Below are positions 28,241 through 51,702 of a DNA stretch of 64,000 nucleotides, one piece after another (the stretch's first letter is position 1; every line of letters begins with the position of its first letter). Position numbers and translations under genes: made by a program. Source of the stretch: a virus. The notes under the pieces are model-generated. The model did not search any database. It had not been told where the DNA came from and saw nothing but the letters and a program-made list of their open reading frames with translations. Location: the IMG/VR virus record IMGVR_UViG_3300043448_000837, positions 50,041-114,040 of that record. One strand, 5' to 3'.

Positions 28241-29332
28241 TCACAGGCCCAGCAAGGCGTCCAGCTGCTTGGGCTTCATTTTCCCCACGAATTCCATGAA
28301 GTTCGCGTACTTGCCGGCACGAATGCCGAACATTGCACCGGAAACATTCGGGTGGTTTTCGAGGACAATGCCCGCAAATTCCTTCTGGGAGTAACCTTCG
28401 TACAGTCGCACGAAGCCCTCAACCATGAACCCGATATCGCCGATACGATCGCGCAAAGCGTTGAACTCTGCGGAATAGTCGGGGAAGTGCAGCAGGAACT
28501 CGTCCAGATCGTCGTTCAGGTACAGCTCGGAGAAGTCAGGATCCCCGTTACCGCGAACGCGATGCAACTGAACGTAAACGTCGGACTTGACCTTGATTCG
28601 GTTACCGTTCGCGTCGCAAACGATGAAGCCTTCGTGGTCGGCACCGCGAGCGTTGACTGCGTCAACGATGTTGTCAGCACCGAAATTGAAGGACTCAGCC
28701 ACCCAGAATACGCGGGAGAAATCACCCAGCGGCAACTCTACGAAATCGTTCGCACGATCCCGCACTGCCAGCAGCCGTAACATCGGCTCGTCGTACTTCA
28801 CAACGATCCGGTTCTCGGCAGCGCACAACTCAAACACGTAGCAGTAATTCGGGTTCAGATCGAAAGCGTTATAGCGCATGTACCGGAAGGTATCCCAGAA
28901 CAGCTCTTCAAACGACATACCGGAATCACCAACGCTGCCAGCACCGCCGACAGAACCGGAGGTAGAAACAACCCACTGCACACCGTTCCAGAACAGTTTA
29001 ATCAGCGAGCCATCATACTTCTCGTATACGTTCGCGGAGGACCAATCAATCTCATCAGCTTCAGCTTCGCCCAGGTTGAAGAAACGGTCGAAAGCGTAAG
29101 CAACCAGGCGAAAGTACGGCGAATGATCACCGTCGTTATCCACTCGCTCTACGACGGCACCACGGCAAGCACGTACGATCGGGTTACCCTTGTCGGTACC
29201 AATTACTCCGTACTTCAGGTTGAACAAACCAGGGAAACGGTCGTCCGTAGAAACGCGGATGTCCAGGTCCGCCAGGGGACCCAGCCCATAGTCGTTCAGC
29301 CAGTTGATCAGGTTGTTTCGCAAGTTATCCAT
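28241..29332 (-). CDS. RNA ligase, T4 Rnl1-like (leaderless)
   Basis: CRG, RFFN, EKYDGS (motif I), FEL, NRIVV, EGFIV, IKVK. Confidence 0.9.
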   Translation of the reverse strand: MDNLRNNLINWLNDYGLGPLADLDIRVSTDDRFPGLFNLKYGVIGTDKGNPIVRACRGAVVERVDNDGDHSPYFRLVAYAFDRFFNLGEAEADEIDWSSANVYEKYDGSLIKLFWNGVQWVVSTSGSVGGAGSVGDSGMSFEELFWDTFRYMRYNAFDLNPNYCYVFELCAAENRIVVKYDEPMLRLLAVRDRANDFVELPLGDFSRVFWVAESFNFGADNIVDAVNARGADHEGFIVCDANGNRIKVKSDVYVQLHRVRGNGDPDFSELYLNDDLDEFLLHFPDYSAEFNALRDRIGDIGFMVEGFVRLYEGYSQKEFAGIVLENHPNVSGAMFGIRAGKYANFMEFVGKMKPKQLDALLGL

Positions 29333-29894: not shown

Positions 29895-31391
29895 TCAGAA
29901 GGTGAACTTCGTTTGAATTACGCCACCAAAGTTAGACGAAGCGCCGGTGAACGCTTGGTTGTTGGTTACGTAGAAGACAGCGGGAGTGATCGAGATGTTG
30001 TCGCTCACACGGTACTTGTAGAAGGCTTCCCACATCAGAGCATCCTTGGAAAGACTTGCGGCATTTCCAGGTTGGCCGATAGCGAAACCAGCACCGTTGC
30101 CTTTCGCGAAGACGTCACTCCACTGAAGGCCAGCGTACCACGATTCAGCGTTGGTTGCACCTGCAGGAGTGGTCTTGTTTTGAGCGGTCAGGCTCACAGT
30201 GTTCCAGCCGTAGCCAGCGCTCACAGAGGGCACGATTCCAGACTTGGAAGGTTGCCAGTAGGCGCTGATTGCGTAGCCGTTGGAAGTTTGACCGGGAGCA
30301 AGAACGCCAGAACCACCGTTCAGAGCGTTAAAAGTGCGAACCCGAGTTCCTTCCGTACCGTAGCGGTAACCGAACGCAACACCGTAATTAGAAGCACGGT
30401 AGCCAACTTGAGCCATCGTGTTCAGGGCGCCGGATTCGTTGAACTCACCCTTGGTGGAATCGTTTCCATTCTGGGCAACGTAGTTCAGACCAGCCACGAA
30501 ACCTTTCTTGCCGGGCTGCCTCCACTGGGCGCCGAAACCTGCACCGGTTGCCTTGTTGTAAACACCAGGCGCACCAGCAAGCTGGAAGAAGTCAAGGATT
30601 TCCGACTTGTACGCGGAAGGAATCCAGGCCATCTCCGTGTTACGAACCAGGGGGCCAGCGGTCAGGGTTAGACCCTTCGTGAAGGCGGGGAACTGGTAGT
30701 ACAGGCGATCCAGTTTGACAGTGTCGGCGGTGCTTTCAGCCTTGTCCAGCTTGAACAGCGAGGAGCTTGATCCGAAAGGTTGAGCCGAGAAGTTACCGGA
30801 ACGCAGGCGAGTGCGCAGCAGATCTTTGCCGGTGAACGACGTGTCGAAGTTCAGGCGAAGGTCGTAGTTGAAGGCGGTTTCCCCAACGTTCGTGCTGGGA
30901 GCGTTTTTGCCAACACCGGGAGTCTTGGCGCCATCAACTCCACCCAGAATGAAATTTGCTTCACCGCGAAGTTTGGTGGTGGTTGAGAACTGAGTTGCTT
31001 CCAGTTGACCAACCTTGGCTTCCAGCTTACTCACGCGACCGCGAATCACGGCCAGTTCAGCGGCGAACTCACGGGCAAGACGATTGAGTTCGTCCGTGAC
31101 TTCAGTTACGCGATCCAGGCAGGCATTCAGCAGGGCGGCAGCTTCGTAACGGGTCATCGCTTGACCGCCACCGTAAGTTCCGTCCGGGTAACCTGCAACG
31201 CAACCGTAGTTTTCTACGAGTTTTTGCAGAGCACCGTACGCCCAGTCGGTAGGCTTGACGTCTGAGAATTGAGCAATGCTCGTCACTTGCTCGGAAGAGT
31301 ATTGATTGACTGCGGCGATATTAAGATCAGCTGCAGATGCTACCAGCGGCGTCGTAACAACAGCACCGGCAACAATAAAAGATTTGATCAT
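29895..31391 (-). CDS. Cyanobacterial porin (SLH + OprB-type barrel; Som/iron-uptake porin)
   Basis: Signal peptide, FSDVKPTDWAY...YGCVAGYPDG, QFSTTTKLRG, C-terminal TKFTF. Confidence 0.93.
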   Translation of the reverse strand: MIKSFIVAGAVVTTPLVASAADLNIAAVNQYSSEQVTSIAQFSDVKPTDWAYGALQKLVENYGCVAGYPDGTYGGGQAMTRYEAAALLNACLDRVTEVTDELNRLAREFAAELAVIRGRVSKLEAKVGQLEATQFSTTTKLRGEANFILGGVDGAKTPGVGKNAPSTNVGETAFNYDLRLNFDTSFTGKDLLRTRLRSGNFSAQPFGSSSSLFKLDKAESTADTVKLDRLYYQFPAFTKGLTLTAGPLVRNTEMAWIPSAYKSEILDFFQLAGAPGVYNKATGAGFGAQWRQPGKKGFVAGLNYVAQNGNDSTKGEFNESGALNTMAQVGYRASNYGVAFGYRYGTEGTRVRTFNALNGGSGVLAPGQTSNGYAISAYWQPSKSGIVPSVSAGYGWNTVSLTAQNKTTPAGATNAESWYAGLQWSDVFAKGNGAGFAIGQPGNAASLSKDALMWEAFYKYRVSDNISITPAVFYVTNNQAFTGASSNFGGVIQTKFTF

Positions 31392-32400: not shown

Positions 32401-32573
32401 TTAATTAGATAGAAATCAACATCCACCTCGCAAAGTGTGGGTCCGTGTTTCAACGGCACTTGTGGGTGGCTCTAGGAGTTTAAGGAATGACTGCATTCCC
32501 GAGTTGCTCCCCGCAGTGTATCGTGGGGCCGACCTCATAAATCGGTGTTAAAAGCAACGCCGCTATTATAACG

Positions 32574-32599
32574 GAAAAAAGGGAGGCGTAAACCTCCCC
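32574..32599 (-). terminator. terminator of the tmRNA
   Basis: gggagg-tttacg-cctccc-tttttt. Confidence 0.7.
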
Positions 32600-32788
32600 G
32601 TTCGCTCAGAGTGTGTTGCTCAAACGGCAACAGCAGTCCTGCGGAATGAAACGATGTTGTTGAGATTTATTCTCACTTCACCCTGCACGGTCGATAACCA
32701 GTTTACCCCCGTGAAGTGGAGGTAAGGCGATTCGAACGCCTGTGTCGCACAGAGCGCCCCAGTTTATAGTCTTGTGAGAGGACTGATT
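32600..32788 (-). ncRNA. ssrA: Two-piece (circularly permuted) tmRNA
   Basis: The T-arm/3' acceptor (...GTTCGAATC...TACCTCCA, ending at 32717) precedes the 5' piece GGGGGTAAACTGGTTATCGAC. The acceptor stem has G3.U70. Tag frame 32664-32620 reads (A)LNNIVSFRRTAVAV*. Confidence 0.88.
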
Positions 32789-34445: not shown

Positions 34446-34517
34446 AGCGGATGAAGGGATTTGAACCCTCGACTTTCTCCTTGGCAAGGAGATGCTCTAC
34501 CACTGAGCTACATCCGC
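34446..34517 (-). tRNA. tRNA-Gly(GCC)
   Basis: Loop TT-GCC-AA. Confidence 0.9.
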
Positions 34518-34537
34518 GAACGTTCCCGAAGGAACGA

Positions 34538-34610
34538 TGGAGAATAGGAGACTCGAACTCCTGACATCCTGCTTGCAAAGCAGGCGCTCTACCAGCTGAG
34601 CTAATTCCCC
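34538..34610 (-). tRNA. tRNA-Ala(UGC)
   Basis: Loop TT-TGC-AA. Confidence 0.9.
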
Positions 34611-34815
34611 GAGCAGGGCGAGAGTATCTGCCTACGATTAACGACTTGCGTAAAGATTAGAACTGAGTCACGCAACTTGGTCGCCTAACCCAGACTTTGC
34701 TTTGTCGCAGTACCGTTACTTTACGATGCAGCTTACGGGACTCTTCATTTAATGCAACATTCCTCGTTGCACCCTCTTTGGCCTCCTTCCTGGCTATCTG
34801 CCAGACGAGTACCAA
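34611..34815 (-). ncRNA. candidate structured ncRNA between tRNA-Thr and tRNA-Ala
   Basis: About 200 nt with no credible ORF; hairpins ctggc/gccag, tgcaac/gttgca, ttgcgt/acgcaa. Confidence 0.5.
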
Positions 34816-34887
34816 AGCCATCACTGAGGCTTGAACTCAGGACCTCCATCTTACCAAGATGGCGCACTACCACTGTGCTATGACGGC
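34816..34887 (-). tRNA. tRNA-Thr(GGU)
   Basis: Loop TT-GGT-AA. Confidence 0.9.
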
Positions 34888-34891
34888 GAAG

Positions 34892-34973
34892 TGGGAAAGA
34901 CTGGATTTGAACCAGTGTAGGCAGAGCCAAAGGTTTTACAGACCTCCTCCTTTAACCACTCGGACACTTTCCC
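34892..34973 (-). tRNA. tRNA-Tyr(GUA)
   Basis: Loop CT-GTA-AA. Confidence 0.9.
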
Positions 34974-35227
34974 AAAATCCCCTTGCGGGGGGATTTGACG
35001 GTCTCTGCAGAGTAGATTGTCAGTTCAATACCTTCAATCACCGTCGTCCGCCCAGTTACCAGCTGGGCGGTGTAGCATTCAGTAACCCATGAGAATGCCA
35101 GCGGGGACCACTCGTATCAGGTCATTAGCCTCCCTTTTGCCTCAGGAGCTCGGCGCACGGCATACTCTCCGTACTGGAGTCGCACTTTTTGGTCAAGGCA
35201 GCAAAACTCCTTGTTGCCCGAAGGCAA
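34974..35227 (-). ncRNA. candidate structured ncRNA between tRNA-Pro and tRNA-Tyr
   Basis: About 250 nt with many hairpins (ccgcccag/ctgggcgg, gcattc/gaatgc, gacggt/accgtc). Confidence 0.5.
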
Positions 35228-35301
<74 letters not shown>

Positions 35302-36193
35302 TGATGGCCCCATTTAACACGTGAAACGCTTCAAGAACGCACAGAGGTGGGGGCTCGTGGCTTCCAGCAGGGCTCGCATATTGGCCGGTAAGAGTGTTTC
35401 ATCCAGCAGCACCAACGGCAAGACAGCCCTCAAGGAAGCACCACACATTAACGACTGTATGAGTGGCCGTGTCGGGAACTTAACGACGTATTCCATACGA
35501 CTCCGGTGTCTAGAACGGAGGGGTTGGTAGGAGGGGCGGCCTCCTGAGTGCGTCACCGCCCGCTTTTGCGTCACCCAGCCAGTGACCGGGGAGAGGCATT
35601 GCACTTCCTACGTTTGCCGGTTTTCAACCGGCCCCTGGAATGAAATCCAGGATGCTTCGTTCTCCCTTGAGCGATCCGAAGAACGCGGGACGGTGATTGC
35701 AGACCGCAGCCCGATGCTATGCCCGGACATTTCCGGACCACGCAGAGCGGGAACGCGAACCAGCGAACTGGCCGCACCACACCGACAGAGCAGTGTGGGT
35801 GGTTGGTGAGGCAGGTGTCTCTACGCTGTACTTCCACAAGTGTCTACGCTATACGTTACACAAGTGTCACGAACAGTTCAACTCCTTTTGCTTTCCTTAC
35901 CTCGGCAGGGTGCCGCTACCTCCCTTGTTGCGGCGTGTTTGTACGTTTCGTTCATCCAGGTACGTTACTAGACCTAGGACACTTTTTCTTTTCCCGCATC
36001 AAGTCGTCAGTGTCGTTAACGCTTGAGCATGGAATGGGAGTTCACCCATTCGTAACTTATTTGGGAGCCTGAACTATGACTCTTACAGGCAGTTTGGCAT
36101 TTTTCTCGCTCCCGGACTACGCAAACTGCCAAATGGCATCCGGGCACAAGCCTACTCCCCCCTCGTCTAGTAGGCATCGCATGGACGAGGGAA
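35302..36193 (-). ncRNA. ~890-nt ncRNA region made of serial pseudoknot/kissing-loop modules
   Basis: At least 7 H-type pseudoknots plus a kissing pair read by eye; flanked by tRNAs; no credible ORF. Confidence 0.65.
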
Positions 36194-36265
36194 CTGGCCC
36201 GGCAGGGATCGAACCTGCGACAACTTGATTAACAGTCAAGCGTTCTACCGCTGAACTACAGGCCA
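36194..36265 (-). tRNA. tRNA-Asn(GUU)
   Basis: Loop CT-GTT-AA. Confidence 0.9.
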
Positions 36266-36305
36266 TTGTGGGAGTGTCTTTAGGGCGCATCTCATTCCCA
36301 AAAGC

Positions 36306-36452
36306 GTACCGAGTGATGGAATCGAACTATCACCGTTCTTTCAGTGAGTTACCATCTCACCTAGGTTTCCGCAGCATTCATCTGACGACTGGTTAAGTCA
36401 ACAAATCAAATGCTCGTCCACCTGAACTACCTACCCTTAGAACTCGGCTTAT
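36306..36452 (-). ncRNA. enlarged tRNA-like RNA
   Basis: Terminal ccgag/ctcgg stem, T-loop GTTCGATTC, D-like gttc-aggtggac-gagc, large insert. Confidence 0.45.
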
Positions 36453-36474
36453 GCTGAAGTTTGCCTTACGGCAA

Positions 36475-36548
36475 TGGCGGAGGCAGGATTCGAACCTGCG
36501 ACCTCCAGGTTATGAGCCTGGCGAGCTACCGGACTGCTCTACTCCACG
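36475..36548 (-). tRNA. tRNA-Met(CAU), initiator-like
   Basis: Unpaired C1, D arm gagcagtccggtagctc, loop CT-CAT-AA. Confidence 0.85.
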
Positions 36549-36662
36549 ATTCAACCCCCAGTTGTAACAAGCGTTGCCAGCTGGACGCACTTGAAACCGG
36601 ATTTTACAACGCTAATGGCCCCAGGGGCGGTGACCGGCGTTGTGCCCACCAAAATGGGCAAA

Positions 36663-36736
36663 TGGGAACTGACGGATTTGAACCATCGACACCACGGGCT
36701 TCAACCGTGTGCTCTACCAAGCTGAGCTAAGTCCCC
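36663..36736 (-). tRNA. tRNA-Phe(GAA)
   Basis: Loop TT-GAA-GC. Confidence 0.88.
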
Positions 36737-36740
36737 GAGG

Positions 36741-36812
36741 TGGAACCGACAAGACTTGAACTTGTGACCGCTCGGTTATCAGCCGAGTGCTCTACCACTG
36801 AGCTACGGTTCC
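36741..36812 (-). tRNA. tRNA-Ile(GAU)
   Basis: Loop CT-GAT-AA. Confidence 0.9.
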
Positions 36813-36987
36813 ATGATTGGGCGGGATTGCTGCTAACTGTTACTTTCACTGACGGAAAGAACTCCCAGCAGTCCCTAACAGTTTTAGTCTTGTTTAGGAC
36901 TCCCATGCGGGCAGCTCACTTTCGTATCACTCTTGCAGAACCAAGAGGTATCAGATGAGCGGTGCAGTTTTGTGTCATGCCGGACAA
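36813..36987 (-). ncRNA. candidate structured ncRNA between tRNA-Asp and tRNA-Ile
   Basis: About 175 nt; gctca/tgagc, ctcttg/caagag, gtcct/gggac helices. Confidence 0.5.
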
Positions 36988-37059
36988 CGACCCTAACGGG
37001 ATTTGAACCCGTGATACTACCGTGACAGGGTAGCGTGATCACCGCTTCACTATAGGGTC
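36988..37059 (-). tRNA. tRNA-Asp(GUC)
   Basis: Loop CT-GTC-AC. Confidence 0.9.
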
Positions 37060-37081
37060 AAGACGAGGTTTGTAACCTCTA

Positions 37082-37153
37082 TGGGTCGTCTGAGATTCGA
37101 ACTCAGGGCCAATCGGTTAAAAGCCGAGTGCTCTACCGCTGAGCTAACGACCC
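37082..37153 (-). tRNA. tRNA-Lys(UUU)
   Basis: Loop CT-TTT-AA. Confidence 0.9.
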
Positions 37154-37554
37154 GTGGATCTCTGGCTGGGATGGTACCGCCGTCATTAACCTCCTACCCA
37201 GAGGTTACCAGAGATGTTGTTCGCTTTCGTGGGCCTGAGAACGGATTGGTTACCGCCAGGTGTACCTTTCTCGTGCGGCGCTGAAACGGATTGGTTACCG
37301 CCAACTTACCGCCTCTTGTCTTTCCGAAGGAAAGTATCAGGCGAATGGACTCTTGGCTGGGGCGATGCGTCCGTCATTAACCAGCTGTTCACTGATTACC
37401 AAGAGGCGGGCGTCCCTAGTCCCCGCGATTTGCCAGAACTGATGAAGTGGCCGGAGACCGAAGTCATAACCCACCTCTCGTTTCGAGTGCGTTTTAGCTC
37501 TTAAACTACGCTACTGAAGTAGCGGTGGGTCTGACACCACACGTTTCACTCTAA
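37154..37554 (-). ncRNA. ~400-nt ncRNA region with two duplicated RNA motifs
   Basis: 19-mer repeated at 37240 and 37285; three-way-junction motif at 37159-37213 and 37350-37405. Confidence 0.6.
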
Positions 37555-37626
37555 TAGTCCCAACGGGATTCGAACCCGTGCTACAACCTTGAAAGGGTTG
37601 TGACCTAACCGCTAGTCGATAGGACC
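37555..37626 (-). tRNA. tRNA-Glu(UUC)
   Basis: Loop CT-TTC-AA. Confidence 0.9.
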
Positions 37627-37998
37627 ATTTGAAAACCTTTGGCTCAGTTCATGCCGTGCGATTTACCCTGGACCGCATATCCAGGCACCAAAGGTTTTTG
37701 GTAATTTCTATTGAGTTTTCAAGTTTCGTGTGACCTTGGAGAAGAACCTCTTTCAACCACCCTTTTATCATAGCGCCTTTTGCGCCAGAAGTAAAGGGGT
37801 GGAAACCGCCCAGAGAGGGCGGGAAACCGTCCTAGTGACTGAAGCGTCGGCAGCGCCGACCTGGTCACGCACGGAGGTGGGTTTTTCACTTTTCAAGGTT
37901 CGGGGCGAGGCTTTCCTCAACCACCCTTTAACTATAGCGCCTTTTGCGCCAGAAGTAAAGGGGTGGAAACCGTACCGAGGGTACGGGAAACCGCCCTA

Positions 37999-38079
37999 TG
38001 CCCTCCGGGAGACTCGAACTCCCACGCACAAGGCACTGGTACCTAAAACCAGGGCGTCTACCAATTCCGCCAGGAGGGC
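37999..38079 (-). tRNA. tRNA-Leu(UAG)
   Basis: Loop TT-TAG-GT. Confidence 0.9.
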
Positions 38080-38084
38080 AAATA

Positions 38085-38184
38085 AGACTGGAATGGAATG
38101 AACGGGAATCGAACCCGTCACTGAAGAGTTCCTTCTGGAGGTTTTTCTCTCCGAGCACCGCCGAGGCACCCCACGTTCCAGTCT
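38085..38184 (-). ncRNA. tRNA-like RNA with non-canonical anticodon loop
   Basis: T arm gacgggTTCGATTcccgtt, ggag-agaaaaac-ctcc arm, outer stem agactggaa/ttccagtct. Confidence 0.6.
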
Positions 38185-38563
38185 ATCGAATTTTCAAGGT
38201 TCGGGGCGAGGCTTTCCTCAACCACCCTTTAACTATAGCGCCTTTTGCGCCAGAAGTAAAGGGGTGGAAACCGCCCAGAGAGGGCGGTAACCCGGTGGTT
38301 GTGTCCGGGTCCACACAAGAGAATCCCCGGACCGGTGACCCGCCAGCCGTAAAGCCGACGGAGCACCCAACCACCCTTTAACTATAACCCGTTTAGGGGC
38401 TCGAGTAAAGGGGGCAAACCGGCCTTTTCAGGCGGTTAACCGCCCTTTCGTCGCTCTTGCTCGTAAATATACTGCAGTCCAAGCATTGGAACAACAATTA
38501 CACCAAACCCGCAGAGTCCGAGCCAAATGGGACTGTCGGCAAGTGTGCGTACGAGGTGAAGCA

Positions 38564-48759: not shown

Positions 48760-48820
48760 AGTGCGTTCCTTCGGCGAAAAGCCTACTTCCGTTTGCTATT
48801 TGCAAATAACAAATGAACGT
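48760..48820 (-). ncRNA. glnA RNA (glutamine riboswitch)
   Basis: CGTTCA-[hairpin]-CGGAAGTAGG-[hairpin]-GAAGGAACGC directly upstream of DUF4278. Confidence 0.85.
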
Positions 48821-49079
48821 GAGTTGTTTTACCCTTAAAGTAGGATAATGAGGAGAGGAATCGCCAGGGCGGCAATTCCCAACAGAAAGCCTCCGATCTC
48901 AAGAATCAGAGGCATCAGACTGTACGGTTGCATTTTTGCGAAGGGTGATTTCCCGCTTCGCCACGTTGCCGCTCGCAGTTGCCATTACGATGGCAACCGA
49001 AACGAAGCCAACGAGGCCAATCACAGCGAGAGCGAGGTCGGTACCAGTGAAGATGGCCCAGGTTTCCATGTGTCGTTTT

Positions 49080-49823: not shown

Positions 49824-51702
49824 TCAGCCGATCGAGGGAGCGGTGAGGGCTACAGGTGTGAAGTCAACAGAAGCGAGGTCCAACGGAAAATTGTGGGCAT
49901 TTCTTTCGTGAGCTACTTCAAAACCAAGATTAGCACGATTCAGAATGTCAGCCCAAGTTGGAATAACACGATTCTGGCTATCAACCAAAGATTGGTTGAA
50001 GTTGAAGCCGTTTAGGTTGAAGGCCATGGTCGAGACGCCTAGCGCCGCGAACCATATTCCGACCACAGGCCAAGCAGCAAGAAAGAAATGAAGAGAACGG
50101 CTATTATTGAAGGATGCATACTGGAAGATCAAACGACCGAAGTAGCCATGGGCTGCAACAATGTTATAGGTTTCTTCTTCTTGTCCGAACTTGTATCCGT
50201 AGTTCTGGGAAATGTCCTCGGTCGTTTCACGAATCAGGCTGGAAGTCACCAGCGAACCGTGCATAGCACTGAACAAAGAACCACCAAAAACACCTGCAAC
50301 ACCCAGCATGTGGAAAGGGTGCATTAGAATGTTGTGCTCAGCTTGGAAAACGAGCATGTAGTTGAAGGTTCCGCTGATTCCGAGTGGCATACCATCGGAG
50401 AATGAACCTTGTCCGAAAGGATAAACCAGGAAAACGGCGGTTGCTGCTGCTACCGGAGCAGAGTAAGCAACAAAAATCCAAGGACGCATACCCAGGCGGT
50501 AGCTAAGCTCCCATTCACGGCCCATGTAGCAAAAAACGCCGAGAAGGAAGTGGAAGACGGTAAGTTGGTAAGGGCCACCGTTGTAGCAGGGTGGCATCCA
50601 CTTGTTTCCAAGTGGCGTGGACTATATCATCACTCTCACGAGTGTCGGGCGCTAATGTCGTATTACGAGTCACGCTTGACTCACCGACTAGTCTCTGAAC
50701 CTTCCGCTCAAGCGTGAGCGGCTTGGCTGCTGATTGCCATACTAATGGAACACGTAACCCCGTTGTGAATAAGGCGTTCCCCGATGGGTAACTTAGCCAG
50801 GTGGGCGGTTGACACCTTGACACCAAAGGCTTCCTCAATCATTTCTGCCACTTGACTGTAATCGACACCGGGTTCGGCAACGATTGTTCCGAGTTTCTTT
50901 CCGATCTTTCGTTCGGTAATCTTCTCGTGAACGTGGAAGTGGCGCTCCCATTTCCTACTGTCAAATACAGATTGGCGAGAGTTTCTCTTATTTTTTCCTC
51001 GATTATCGTCATTCCAGGTGGAGAGTTTTCTTCCTATGGCTTGACGAGTTTCCCGAGGTTGCTTAAGAGCGGCTTCTCGGAGTTGGCCGCTTTCTTTAGC
51101 GGCTTTACCACCTTTCTTCCCAGCAAAGGAAAGAATCAGCTCAACGATTTCCTCCTTGTTTATCGCACCGGACAAAGCCTTGTAAGCGATTCGGTCACCC
51201 TCGCTGCCCCAAAGTTGCCAGTTGGCGTAGTGGAACATTGCGTGACGAGTAACACTAATACCCTTAACAATGTTGGAAGGGTCGTCGGAGCCGCCGAGAT
51301 GTCTAGGTAGTAAATGGTGATTGTGTTTCATTTTCAGGTTTCCAGCAGTTCACCCGATTTATAGTGGCCCTACAGGCTGAGCCACTCATCCAAGGAAGCA
51401 GCTTCCCAGATAGGGTAGAAGTGCAGGCCAATAGCGTTACTGGACGGCACAACAGCGCCAGAAATGATGTTGTTCCCATACAGGAGAGAACCAGCGACTG
51501 GTTCACGAATTCCGTCGATATCGACAGGAGGAGCGGCGACGAACGCGACAATGAAGCAAATAGTTGCGGCAAGCAACGTCGGGATCATCAGTGTACCAAA
51601 CCAACCTACGTAGAGGCGGTTATTGGTTGAAGTCACCCATTGGCAGAAAGACTCCCAGGAATCAGCGAGGGGAGAACGACGAGTTAAAACAGAAGCGGTC
51701 AT
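49824..51702 (-). CDS. psbA: Photosystem II D1; exon 1 51702-51380, exon 2 50586-49824 (361 aa spliced)
   Basis: Canonical D1 sequence; splicing restores DEWL-YNGGPYQ; E130 (MGREWE). Confidence 0.97.
50587..51379 (-). mobile_element. Group I intron (793 nt) in psbA
   Basis: 5' splice site after U with P1 gtggct/gggccac; P10 tgtag/ctaca; core GAACTGCTGGAA, AATCAGCAGCCAAG, TTCAGAGACTA, GATATAGTCC; terminal G. Confidence 0.92.
50708..51331 (-). CDS. intron-encoded HNH homing endonuclease
   Basis: [18 protein letters not shown]...HAMFH. Confidence 0.85.
   Translation of the reverse strand: MKHNHHLLPRHLGGSDDPSNIVKGISVTRHAMFHYANWQLWGSEGDRIAYKALSGAINKEEIVELILSFAGKKGGKAAKESGQLREAALKQPRETRQAIGRKLSTWNDDNRGKNKRNSRQSVFDSRKWERHFHVHEKITERKIGKKLGTIVAEPGVDYSQVAEMIEEAFGVKVSTAHLAKLPIGERLIHNGVTCSISMAISSQAAHA

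Follow-up and report, generated by a model that had tools for sequence, protein, structure and literature searches.

The stretch of viral DNA analysed here, called the window (64,000 nt; positions 50,041 to 114,040 of IMG/VR record IMGVR_UViG_3300043448_000837), is the second half of a 114-kb virus record with a completeness rating of ~51%. It carries 32 tRNA genes, found with ARAGORN and Rfam, every one of which lies on the minus strand, and our subject is the 892-nt spacer (35302-36193, minus strand) that separates two of them. The spacer RNA is bounded at its 5' end by tRNA-Asn(GUU) (36194-36265) and at its 3' end by tRNA-Pro(UGG) (35228-35301), both on the same strand and both recognized by the two methods, and it is filled with small folded modules; most other tRNAs of the array are 0-20 nt apart, without any intervening module. 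Consensus scans place four promoter-like sites (TTTACT-17-TATAGT/TATGAT) upstream, at 38409-37767, and an intrinsic terminator downstream, at 32599-32580, and find neither kind of site inside the spacer, which is thus most simply an internal part of one tRNA operon. In accordance with the small stable RNAs of tRNA operons, a non-tRNA RNA lies within a phage tRNA transcription unit, with tRNA processing sites on either side. All features described below are on the minus strand and are read in the direction of the tRNAs, unless stated otherwise.

A preliminary description, made from the letters of the sequence, had seen in the spacer a string of different compact modules, most of them pseudoknots, and had read the string as a library of RNA decoys or else as a new large noncoding RNA class. 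All the base-pairings that it listed exist at their minus-strand coordinates, and the string itself holds, in that the modules are different and fold independently. A BLAST comparison of the spacer with the whole window found every module to be single-copy, with no second copy of any part. The spacer is very probably a mosaic of ~15 independently folding modules of 25-95 nt each, several of which are pseudoknots.

The mosaic architecture emerges from comparison with ~45 related arrays (given L numbers here), which were gathered by way of the ferritin-like protein encoded upstream (3 kb), DNA patterns from conserved motifs, and BLAST. These relatives are freshwater and estuarine cyanophages, ranging from near-identical down to 56% identity of the flanking protein, and the homologous segments all lie inside tRNA arrays, in the same orientation as the tRNAs. 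The edges of modules (given letters here) are the edges of indels in the relatives. Relatives with 93-98% flank identity are without 35807-35755 (53 nt; module A and part of module B) and also without ~35652-35523 (~130 nt; two simple hairpins and module G), the latter segment being missing from L002, L004 and L024, and the same close relatives have another apical half of module R. Between two tRNAs of L028 there are only modules E, F and H, and L066 has only one hairpin, X and E. The order in L033, L030 and L071 is A-S-E-F-X, while module G stands beyond tRNA-Asn, apart from the other modules, in L022 and between modules D and E in L037. Indels at module edges, modules in single copy and differing orders together exclude one obligate large fold, as well as an origin from repeats or mobile elements.

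The relatives also carry modules Z (the abiF RNA, discussed below), D, S, W and Y and a double-T-arm tRNA-like element, none of which turned up in a search of the window. Module D, which lies between X and E in the spacers of L006, L022, L037, L093, L034 and L131, consists of kissing hairpins with loops ACUGCC and GGCAGU; in L093 the two loops change jointly to AGUGCC and GGCACU, so that the kissing pairing covaries. The tRNA-like elements (L022:13009-13098, and in the L006 and L097 spacers) have two to three T-arm-like hairpins of the GGCGG-UUCGAUU-CCGUC type within one acceptor-like stem, and one of these elements is called tRNA-Leu(CAG) by ARAGORN. Matches to the tRNA-Sec model under its threshold of 47 also occur in the relatives' tRNA arrays (L287:406-489, 41.6 bits; L034:741-834, 32.5 bits), and these may be unusual long-arm tRNAs.

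Module F (36088-36144) is an H-type pseudoknot, in which stem S1 pairs CCCGGA with UCCGGG and stem S2 pairs GGCAGUUUG with CAAACUGCC; loop 1 is a conserved UGCCAUUU, and loop 3 is rich in A. S1 reaches 95% pairing across 17 distinct sequences, including three pairs in which both sides have changed, a value attained by none of 500 shuffles, and sliding the 3' partner out of place lowers the pairing to 22-56%. S2 is 89.5% paired over 17 distinct sequences, again with none of 500 shuffles as high, as counted on a MAFFT alignment that was out of register between two groups and was re-registered by script, with row L131 wrongly shifted. At least six different S2 sequences occur (GGCAGUUUG, GGCCGUUU, CCGGUUUCC, GAUGGUUUC and CUGGUUU among them), the partner matching in each, and the cultured Synechococcus phage S-SZBM1 carries F with GGUAGUUU paired to AAACUACC in this stem. 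Both stems of the pseudoknot first picked out by eye at 36144-36088 therefore covary. The U.G pairs in the stems of F show that the RNA strand is the minus strand.

Module G (35527-35611) is a multi-helix RNA of ~85 nt, with a closing helix P1 (GUAGGA/UCCUAC), a helix P1.1 (UGC/GCA), and hairpins P2 and P3 (the latter GGGCGG/CCGCCC). A 20-nt signature of G is present in 46 viral contigs, and 47 instances could be parsed (18 distinct), all 47 within 1.5 kb of tRNAs on the same strand. P1 covaries (GUAGGA/UCCUAC versus GCAGGA/UCCUGC, a U-A to C-G exchange), and so does P1.1 (UGC/GCA versus CAC/GUG). An additional pseudoknot, between AGUGC and GCACU of the P3 loop, is possible; its basis is two compensatory changes (AGUGCA/UGCACU to UGUGUA/UACACA), and the per-sequence shuffle tests are not significant. 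The pseudoknot previously drawn at 35561-35529 survives in one of its halves: GGGCGG/CCGCCC is a real helix, namely P3, whereas CUCCU pairs with GUAGGA in the covarying closing helix and not with AGGAG. Judged from the compared sequences, F is a well-supported new pseudoknot and G is a widespread RNA of 81-105 nt, found in tRNA arrays only.

Module H (35307-35354), built as GCCCCCAC-CUCUG-[variable hairpin]-UCACGUG-UUAAAU-GGGGC, ends 5 nt ahead of tRNA-Pro. Among its 17 distinct variants the single strands do not vary, and in the inner hairpin three pairs show double changes. In 10 of the 14 contexts with a downstream tRNA, H ends 3-5 nt before the tRNA 5' end, and G likewise ends just ahead of a tRNA in 19 of 27 contexts. 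Module E (35653-35707) combines GCGGU-loop-ACCGU, a variable hairpin and a conserved AAGGGAGAACGA; it is present in all the related arrays recovered, its middle hairpin appearing in four different sequences, each of which pairs. Since E stands without X in L028 and ahead of X in L033, it is an independent unit.

Modules B and X occupy 35709-35775, B being CCAG-UUCG-CUGG, a hairpin that is longer in L022, and X being CCCG-CUC-UGC-[7-bp hairpin]-GCA-U-CGGG. The apical hairpin of X is swapped in relatives for a UUCG, GAAA or GUAA tetraloop, and its stem varies with pairing kept. Module A (35777-35798) is a hairpin with the stem CCACAC/GUGUGG around an almost invariant loop, UGCUCUGUCG. A stretch of 39 nt comprising A and its flank is 100% identical in L022, a phage in which the neighbouring protein shows 56% identity, and one pair of the stem changes from C-G to U-A on both sides in L030 and L100. 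PK6 (35907-35934) is a small H-type pseudoknot (GCCGC/GCGGC and AGGG/CCCU), as proposed beforehand, and both of its stems are kept through compensatory double changes in a single distant homologue, L071 (GUCGC/GCGAC and GGGG/CCCC).

Module R' (35808-35903) is a long hairpin with a conserved purine-rich 5' strand, GAGGUAAGGAAAGCAAAAGGAG, and a 3' strand, CACCUGCCUC. In the window its apical part is replaced by a 24-nt tandem repeat of 2.1 copies (35820-35868, Tandem Repeats Finder), the only repeat-array feature of the spacer; at this position the close relatives L036 and L292 have two copies of a ~32-nt repeat. The R motif to which R' relates is ~60 nt long (GAGGYAAGGAAAGNAAAAGGAGCAUGGG...GAUACCGCACCUGCCUC), with helices that covary around a conserved A.A mismatch, and is absent from Rfam 15. 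Its closing helices covary as well, e.g., AGGAGC/GCACCU versus CGGAGG/CCACCG. The R signature is present in 21 viral contigs, and the full motif in 10 distinct variants adjoining tRNAs, Ralstonia phage RSP15 counted. Sites beside tRNAs include L304:5077-5137, L294:5325-5388 and positions 1498-1577 of L306 (Ralstonia phage RSP15, LC121084). The carriers are both AT-rich and GC-rich phages, among them this Ralstonia phage of the Ackermannviridae, in which the match consists of the R 5' strand (37 nt at 89% identity), the remaining motif having been recognized by eye.

PK1 (36150-36191), directly 3' of tRNA-Asn, is a candidate H-type pseudoknot (CCCUCGUC/GACGAGGG and GCCUACU/AGUAGGC) with the highest pseudoknot score of the region (42); it is confined to close relatives, where both of its substitutions fall in loops and the stems are invariant. 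The candidate kissing hairpins at 36032-36082 show the pairing of the loops AGUUCA and UGAACU as described beforehand, with stems and loops invariant in relatives, and 40 of 500 shuffles (8%) contain a comparable arrangement. The pseudoknot proposed at 36026-35978 (PK4; UCAAG/CUUGA and GACACU/AGUGUC) scores at chance level and is not supported: of four variants, two (L036 and L024 types) have an uncompensated G-to-A change that leaves a C.A mismatch in the second stem. The next one, at 35977-35941 (HP5), is retained as a hairpin, the stem of which covaries among four close variants (U.G, C-G or U-A at one pair, A-U or G-C at another), but its second stem is not conserved. Covariation among homologues is thus seen for F, PK6, G, the inner hairpin of H, X, A and the HP5 stem, and not for the second stems of these last two proposals. 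HP2 (35616-35651) comprises two simple hairpins (CCUGGA/UCCAGG and GCCGGUU-GAAA-AACCGGC) common to L006 and L134. Between G and H lies a region (35359-35520) formed of the candidate pseudoknot PK8 and a long hairpin T (CUCCG/CGGAG, CGUAU-GGA-AUACG, a CCAC...GUGG hairpin and GCUUCC...GGAAGC), which is kept in L097, L290, L034 and L033, where the indels and changes are of a kind that a coding sequence would not tolerate. The stems of PK8 itself (35520-35491) are invariant in six variants, and a competing hairpin exists.

How far these folds exceed chance depends on the stringency applied. Sites were counted as pseudoknot-capable when two helices, each at least 5 bp long, interleaved, and their number was compared with that in 200 dinucleotide shuffles. 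Under loose criteria the spacer holds 6 such sites, against 5.3 +/- 1.7 in the shuffles, so that no excess of pseudoknots is found at this level, and the pseudoknots picked by eye are not evidence in themselves. Strong sites (score of at least 36) do exceed the shuffles, with 3 observed against 0.28 expected (P = 0.004), one of the three being a scoring artefact within module G; the top score of 42, that of PK1, is attained by 1.8% of shuffles. The minimum free energy (MFE) of the whole spacer is only mildly unusual, its z-score being -2.25 for the minus strand and -1.31 for the plus strand.

No protein-coding role for the spacer was found, in agreement with the initial view that it holds no credible open reading frame (ORF). 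Frames of 30-117 amino acids (aa) can be drawn on both strands, without any meaningful match in Pfam or PHROGs. The sole frame preceded by a Shine-Dalgarno-like GGAG, with its ATG at 35496, is broken in relatives by a 10-nt insertion (L033) and by a stop after 24 codons (L034), and in L097 we read five of its six changes as non-synonymous. The same frame was considered as a transfer-messenger RNA (tmRNA) tag, VVKF resembling cyanobacterial tags, and was ruled out by these non-synonymous substitutions and indels. Neither a tRNA-like domain nor a tag reading frame is present in the spacer by ARAGORN and Rfam.

Nor does the spacer belong to a catalogued RNA family. In 35302-36193 Rfam 15 gives no full-length or other match, GOLLD and ROOL included, at gathering thresholds or even at E<=10, and cmscan over 34500-38300 returns only tRNAs and chance hits. 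The conserved core was also inspected by eye for signatures of RNase P RNA, signal recognition particle (SRP) RNA, tmRNA and group I introns; no such signature stood up, and Rfam reports none of them. A blastn search of GenBank phages yields no match at E<=1e-5 and, at E<=1, only module F in S-SZBM1 besides chance hits, and the PLSDB plasmids (72,556 records) contain no similar DNA at E<=1. A pattern scan for module E in metagenomes recovered 13 true arrays, the remaining matches being mostly due to chance; in bacterial genome contigs all 120 matches listed were chance matches in GC-rich bacteria, none of them cyanobacterial and none with wider similarity.

Several other features of the window deserve mention. 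A permuted (two-piece) tmRNA-like gene lies at 32555-32772 (Rfam tmRNA_permuted, 32.2 bits, E = 2e-4, under the threshold of 47), with a T-arm and CCA end followed by GGGGGUAA, by the frame LNNIVSFRRTAVAV-stop, and by a terminator; the tmRNA_permuted match of the relative L093 is over the threshold, at 52.7 bits. An OprB-family porin gene of cyanobacterial type, with an N-terminal SLH domain, is situated between tRNA genes (29895-31391), and farther away are a glutamine riboswitch aptamer (48760-48821, 54 bits) and a group I intron (50598-51476, 68 bits) with a 207-aa ORF within its span (50708-51331). A gene for a T4 Rnl1-type RNA ligase (28241-29332; Pfam RNA_lig_T4_1 at 7e-19) marks the edge of the tRNA region. 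In T4, Rnl1 repairs nuclease-cut tRNA, and the ligase of the window may be a tRNA-repair counter-defence gene; as we see it, its position beside the array fits a phage pressed by RNA-targeting defences.

A link to defence is offered by the relatives, the arrays of which contain the abiF RNA (Rfam RF03085), at 55.7 bits in L037, 52.2 in L143, 44.8 in L294 and 42.3 in L032. The copy in L037 is directly 3' of module E. In S-SZBM1, module F lies in the spacer between tRNA-Pro and tRNA-Ala, and a copy of the abiF consensus was recognized by eye in the same spacer. The abiF RNA (AbiFr) is the RNA antitoxin of a type III toxin-antitoxin and abortive-infection system, in which it prevents the AbiF/Abi_2 HEPN RNase from acting (PMC12737573); it has been listed in the cyanophage S-CREM1, with no role proposed (PMC9964418). 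An Abi_2 protein is encoded in none of four phage records with abiF RNA, two of which are rated 100% complete, so that these copies lack their toxin. Each abiF copy stops 4-7 nt short of a tRNA, and abiF, H and G have in common a usual end 3-7 nt ahead of a tRNA, where a cut by RNase P would define the 3' end of each.

The explanation that best combines these observations, which we advance tentatively, as possible rather than probable, is a cassette array of small structured RNAs acting as decoys. The tRNA operon would be transcribed over ~5.8 kb, from the tandem promoter-like sites at ~38.4-37.8 kb to the terminator at ~32.6 kb. Cleavage by RNase P ahead of tRNA-Pro and 3' maturation of tRNA-Asn, both established steps of tRNA processing, would then release the spacer, either as one multivalent RNA of ~890 nt or in smaller pieces. 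Each module is a separately evolving unit, swapped among phages by recombination, as the comparison with relatives shows. The released modules would bind proteins in trans, as decoys of, or antidotes to, host defence nucleases that are restrained by small RNAs, by analogy with the toxin-less abiF RNA. This reading is drawn from a shared type of slot, a shared processing geometry and a cassette-like turnover, rather than from homology or binding, and a decoy function of the window's own modules is, by that analogy, a guarded suggestion. A more specific form, in which the spacer would be a multivalent anti-defence RNA island and each module a toxin-less copy of a different picocyanobacterial small RNA that restrains a defence nuclease, is doubtful.

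A number of observations weigh against decoys. The abiF RNA, sought as a 37-nt hairpin with AAGCCUCUCAACGAUGCUCAAA between 6-bp closing strands and a score of at least 37 bits, is absent from the window and from the whole 114-kb record (E<=10), and no module of the window matches any catalogued antitoxin RNA. There is no tandem array of identical repeats of ~34-45 nt like those of the type III antitoxins ToxI, CptI and TenpI, the 24-nt repeat of 2.1 copies in R' being the only one, and no bacterial copy of a module beside a toxin gene was found in a search that covered plasmids, cyanobacterial chromosomes lying outside it. Several modules are invariant, so that their folds lack covariation, and the region-wide folding energy is just mildly better than that of shuffles. 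The initial idea of a decoy library thus gains from the toxin-less abiF RNAs in the tRNA-array spacers of relatives, but not from a known antitoxin or a ToxI-like array in the spacer itself. No toxin endoribonuclease gene adjoins the spacer, as no credible ORF does, which does not discriminate, since a decoy would show the same.

Two alternatives compete with decoys. According to the first, the modules are cis-acting furniture of the operon, which fold the precursor, guide or space the cuts by RNases P, E and Z, or block exonucleases, and are functionless once released. Modules of the H, G, R and abiF type mostly sit 3-10 nt ahead of the 5' end of a tRNA, and modules are always co-oriented with tRNAs and within tRNA arrays (47 of 47 for G), as such a role would lead one to expect. 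However, processing needs no modules, since most tRNAs of the array, as noted above, do without one; loops and junctions, such as the A loop and the unpaired strands in modules H, E and G, are conserved as much as stems, which suggests specific ligands; and one slot-mate, the abiF RNA, is known to bind a protein in trans. A purely cis-acting role is on balance unlikely.

The second alternative keeps the modules as trans-acting small RNAs but directs them to non-defence targets, such as host translation, ribosome rescue, RNA decay or metabolism, as protein sponges or aptamers. Conserved pseudoknots with A-rich loops do resemble aptamer or protein-binding folds, and RNA-level control of the host would be in keeping with a phage that also has the permuted tmRNA-like gene and the glutamine riboswitch. 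Against this, no module has a riboswitch-like placement ahead of an ORF, and the speed with which near-identical phages acquire, lose and exchange modules is less typical of a core takeover function than of accessory genes in an arms race. We consider non-defence targets improbable.

That the spacer encodes a single ornate RNA of ~890 nt, with the modules as domains in the manner of GOLLD or ROOL, is very unlikely. The size is similar, the location in a phage tRNA array would allow release in one piece by tRNA processing, and the position of G between D and E in L037 recalls an inserted peripheral domain. There is, however, no match to GOLLD or ROOL at E<=10, the MFE z is only -2.25, and a conserved long-range helix was not found. 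The 53-nt and ~130-nt blocks are missing and others are swapped in relatives ~98% identical in the flanking ferritin-like gene, the order is not conserved, and tRNAs stand between modules. The loss and swapping of whole modules, the differing orders and the intervening tRNAs likewise lead us to reject the initial proposal of a new large noncoding RNA class. Non-functional remains, whether degenerate tRNA genes, scars left by mobile elements or genes for small proteins, would accommodate the pseudoknots that score at chance and the several drawable ORFs of 60-117 aa, but can be virtually dismissed, as they are largely refuted by covariation, the modules showing compensatory changes and near-perfect conservation, being single-copy and without tRNA-like matches, and the ORFs having no family matches and being broken in relatives.

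Whatever the modules do, many uncultured cyanophages have in common at least six conserved small RNA families that lie outside Rfam 15 (F, G, H, E, X and R). If the modules are decoys, the tRNA operons of phages would serve generally to deliver RNA antidotes, and every module would offer a way to probe for a host defence. If each is a copy of a different host small RNA, the families F, G, H, E, X, A, R and PK6 would be leads to several RNA-controlled host defence systems that await discovery.

Among known systems, the spacer shares with tmRNA the series of several H-type pseudoknots near tRNA-like elements, but it has no tRNA-like domain, tag frame or tmRNA model match, and the permuted tmRNA-like gene lies elsewhere (~32555-32772). 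GOLLD and ROOL are large ornate RNAs, long, ORF-free and structured, in phage tRNA regions (PMC12286853). Unlike them, the spacer has neither a covariance-model match nor one conserved multi-domain architecture. The tRNA cluster of phage T4 provides a counterpart in placement: rnaC and rnaD (species 1 and 2) are stable RNAs that are co-transcribed with the tRNAs and released by the tRNA-processing enzymes. There, too, non-tRNA small RNAs lie within a phage tRNA transcription unit, but T4 has two such RNAs, as opposed to ~15 fast-turnover modules in one spacer.

Closer to the proposed function, the Pectobacterium phage phiTE reportedly escapes ToxIN by means of a pseudo-ToxI, as Blower and colleagues are said to have described in 2012. 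The likeness is one of proposed logic, that of a phage RNA copying a host antitoxin to neutralize an abortive-infection RNase, whereas in structure the two differ, pseudo-ToxI being a tandem repeat of one ToxI-homologous unit and the spacer modules being all different, with a single two-copy 24-nt repeat. The abiF RNA and module H are similar in outline, both combining a GC-rich closing stem with strands that read CCUCU and UAAA, although the Rfam model of abiF does not recognize H. The orphan abiF RNA also resembles the modules in its setting, as a small folded RNA that lies in the tRNA-array spacers of related phages, near a tRNA 5' end, in a phage without the toxin gene.

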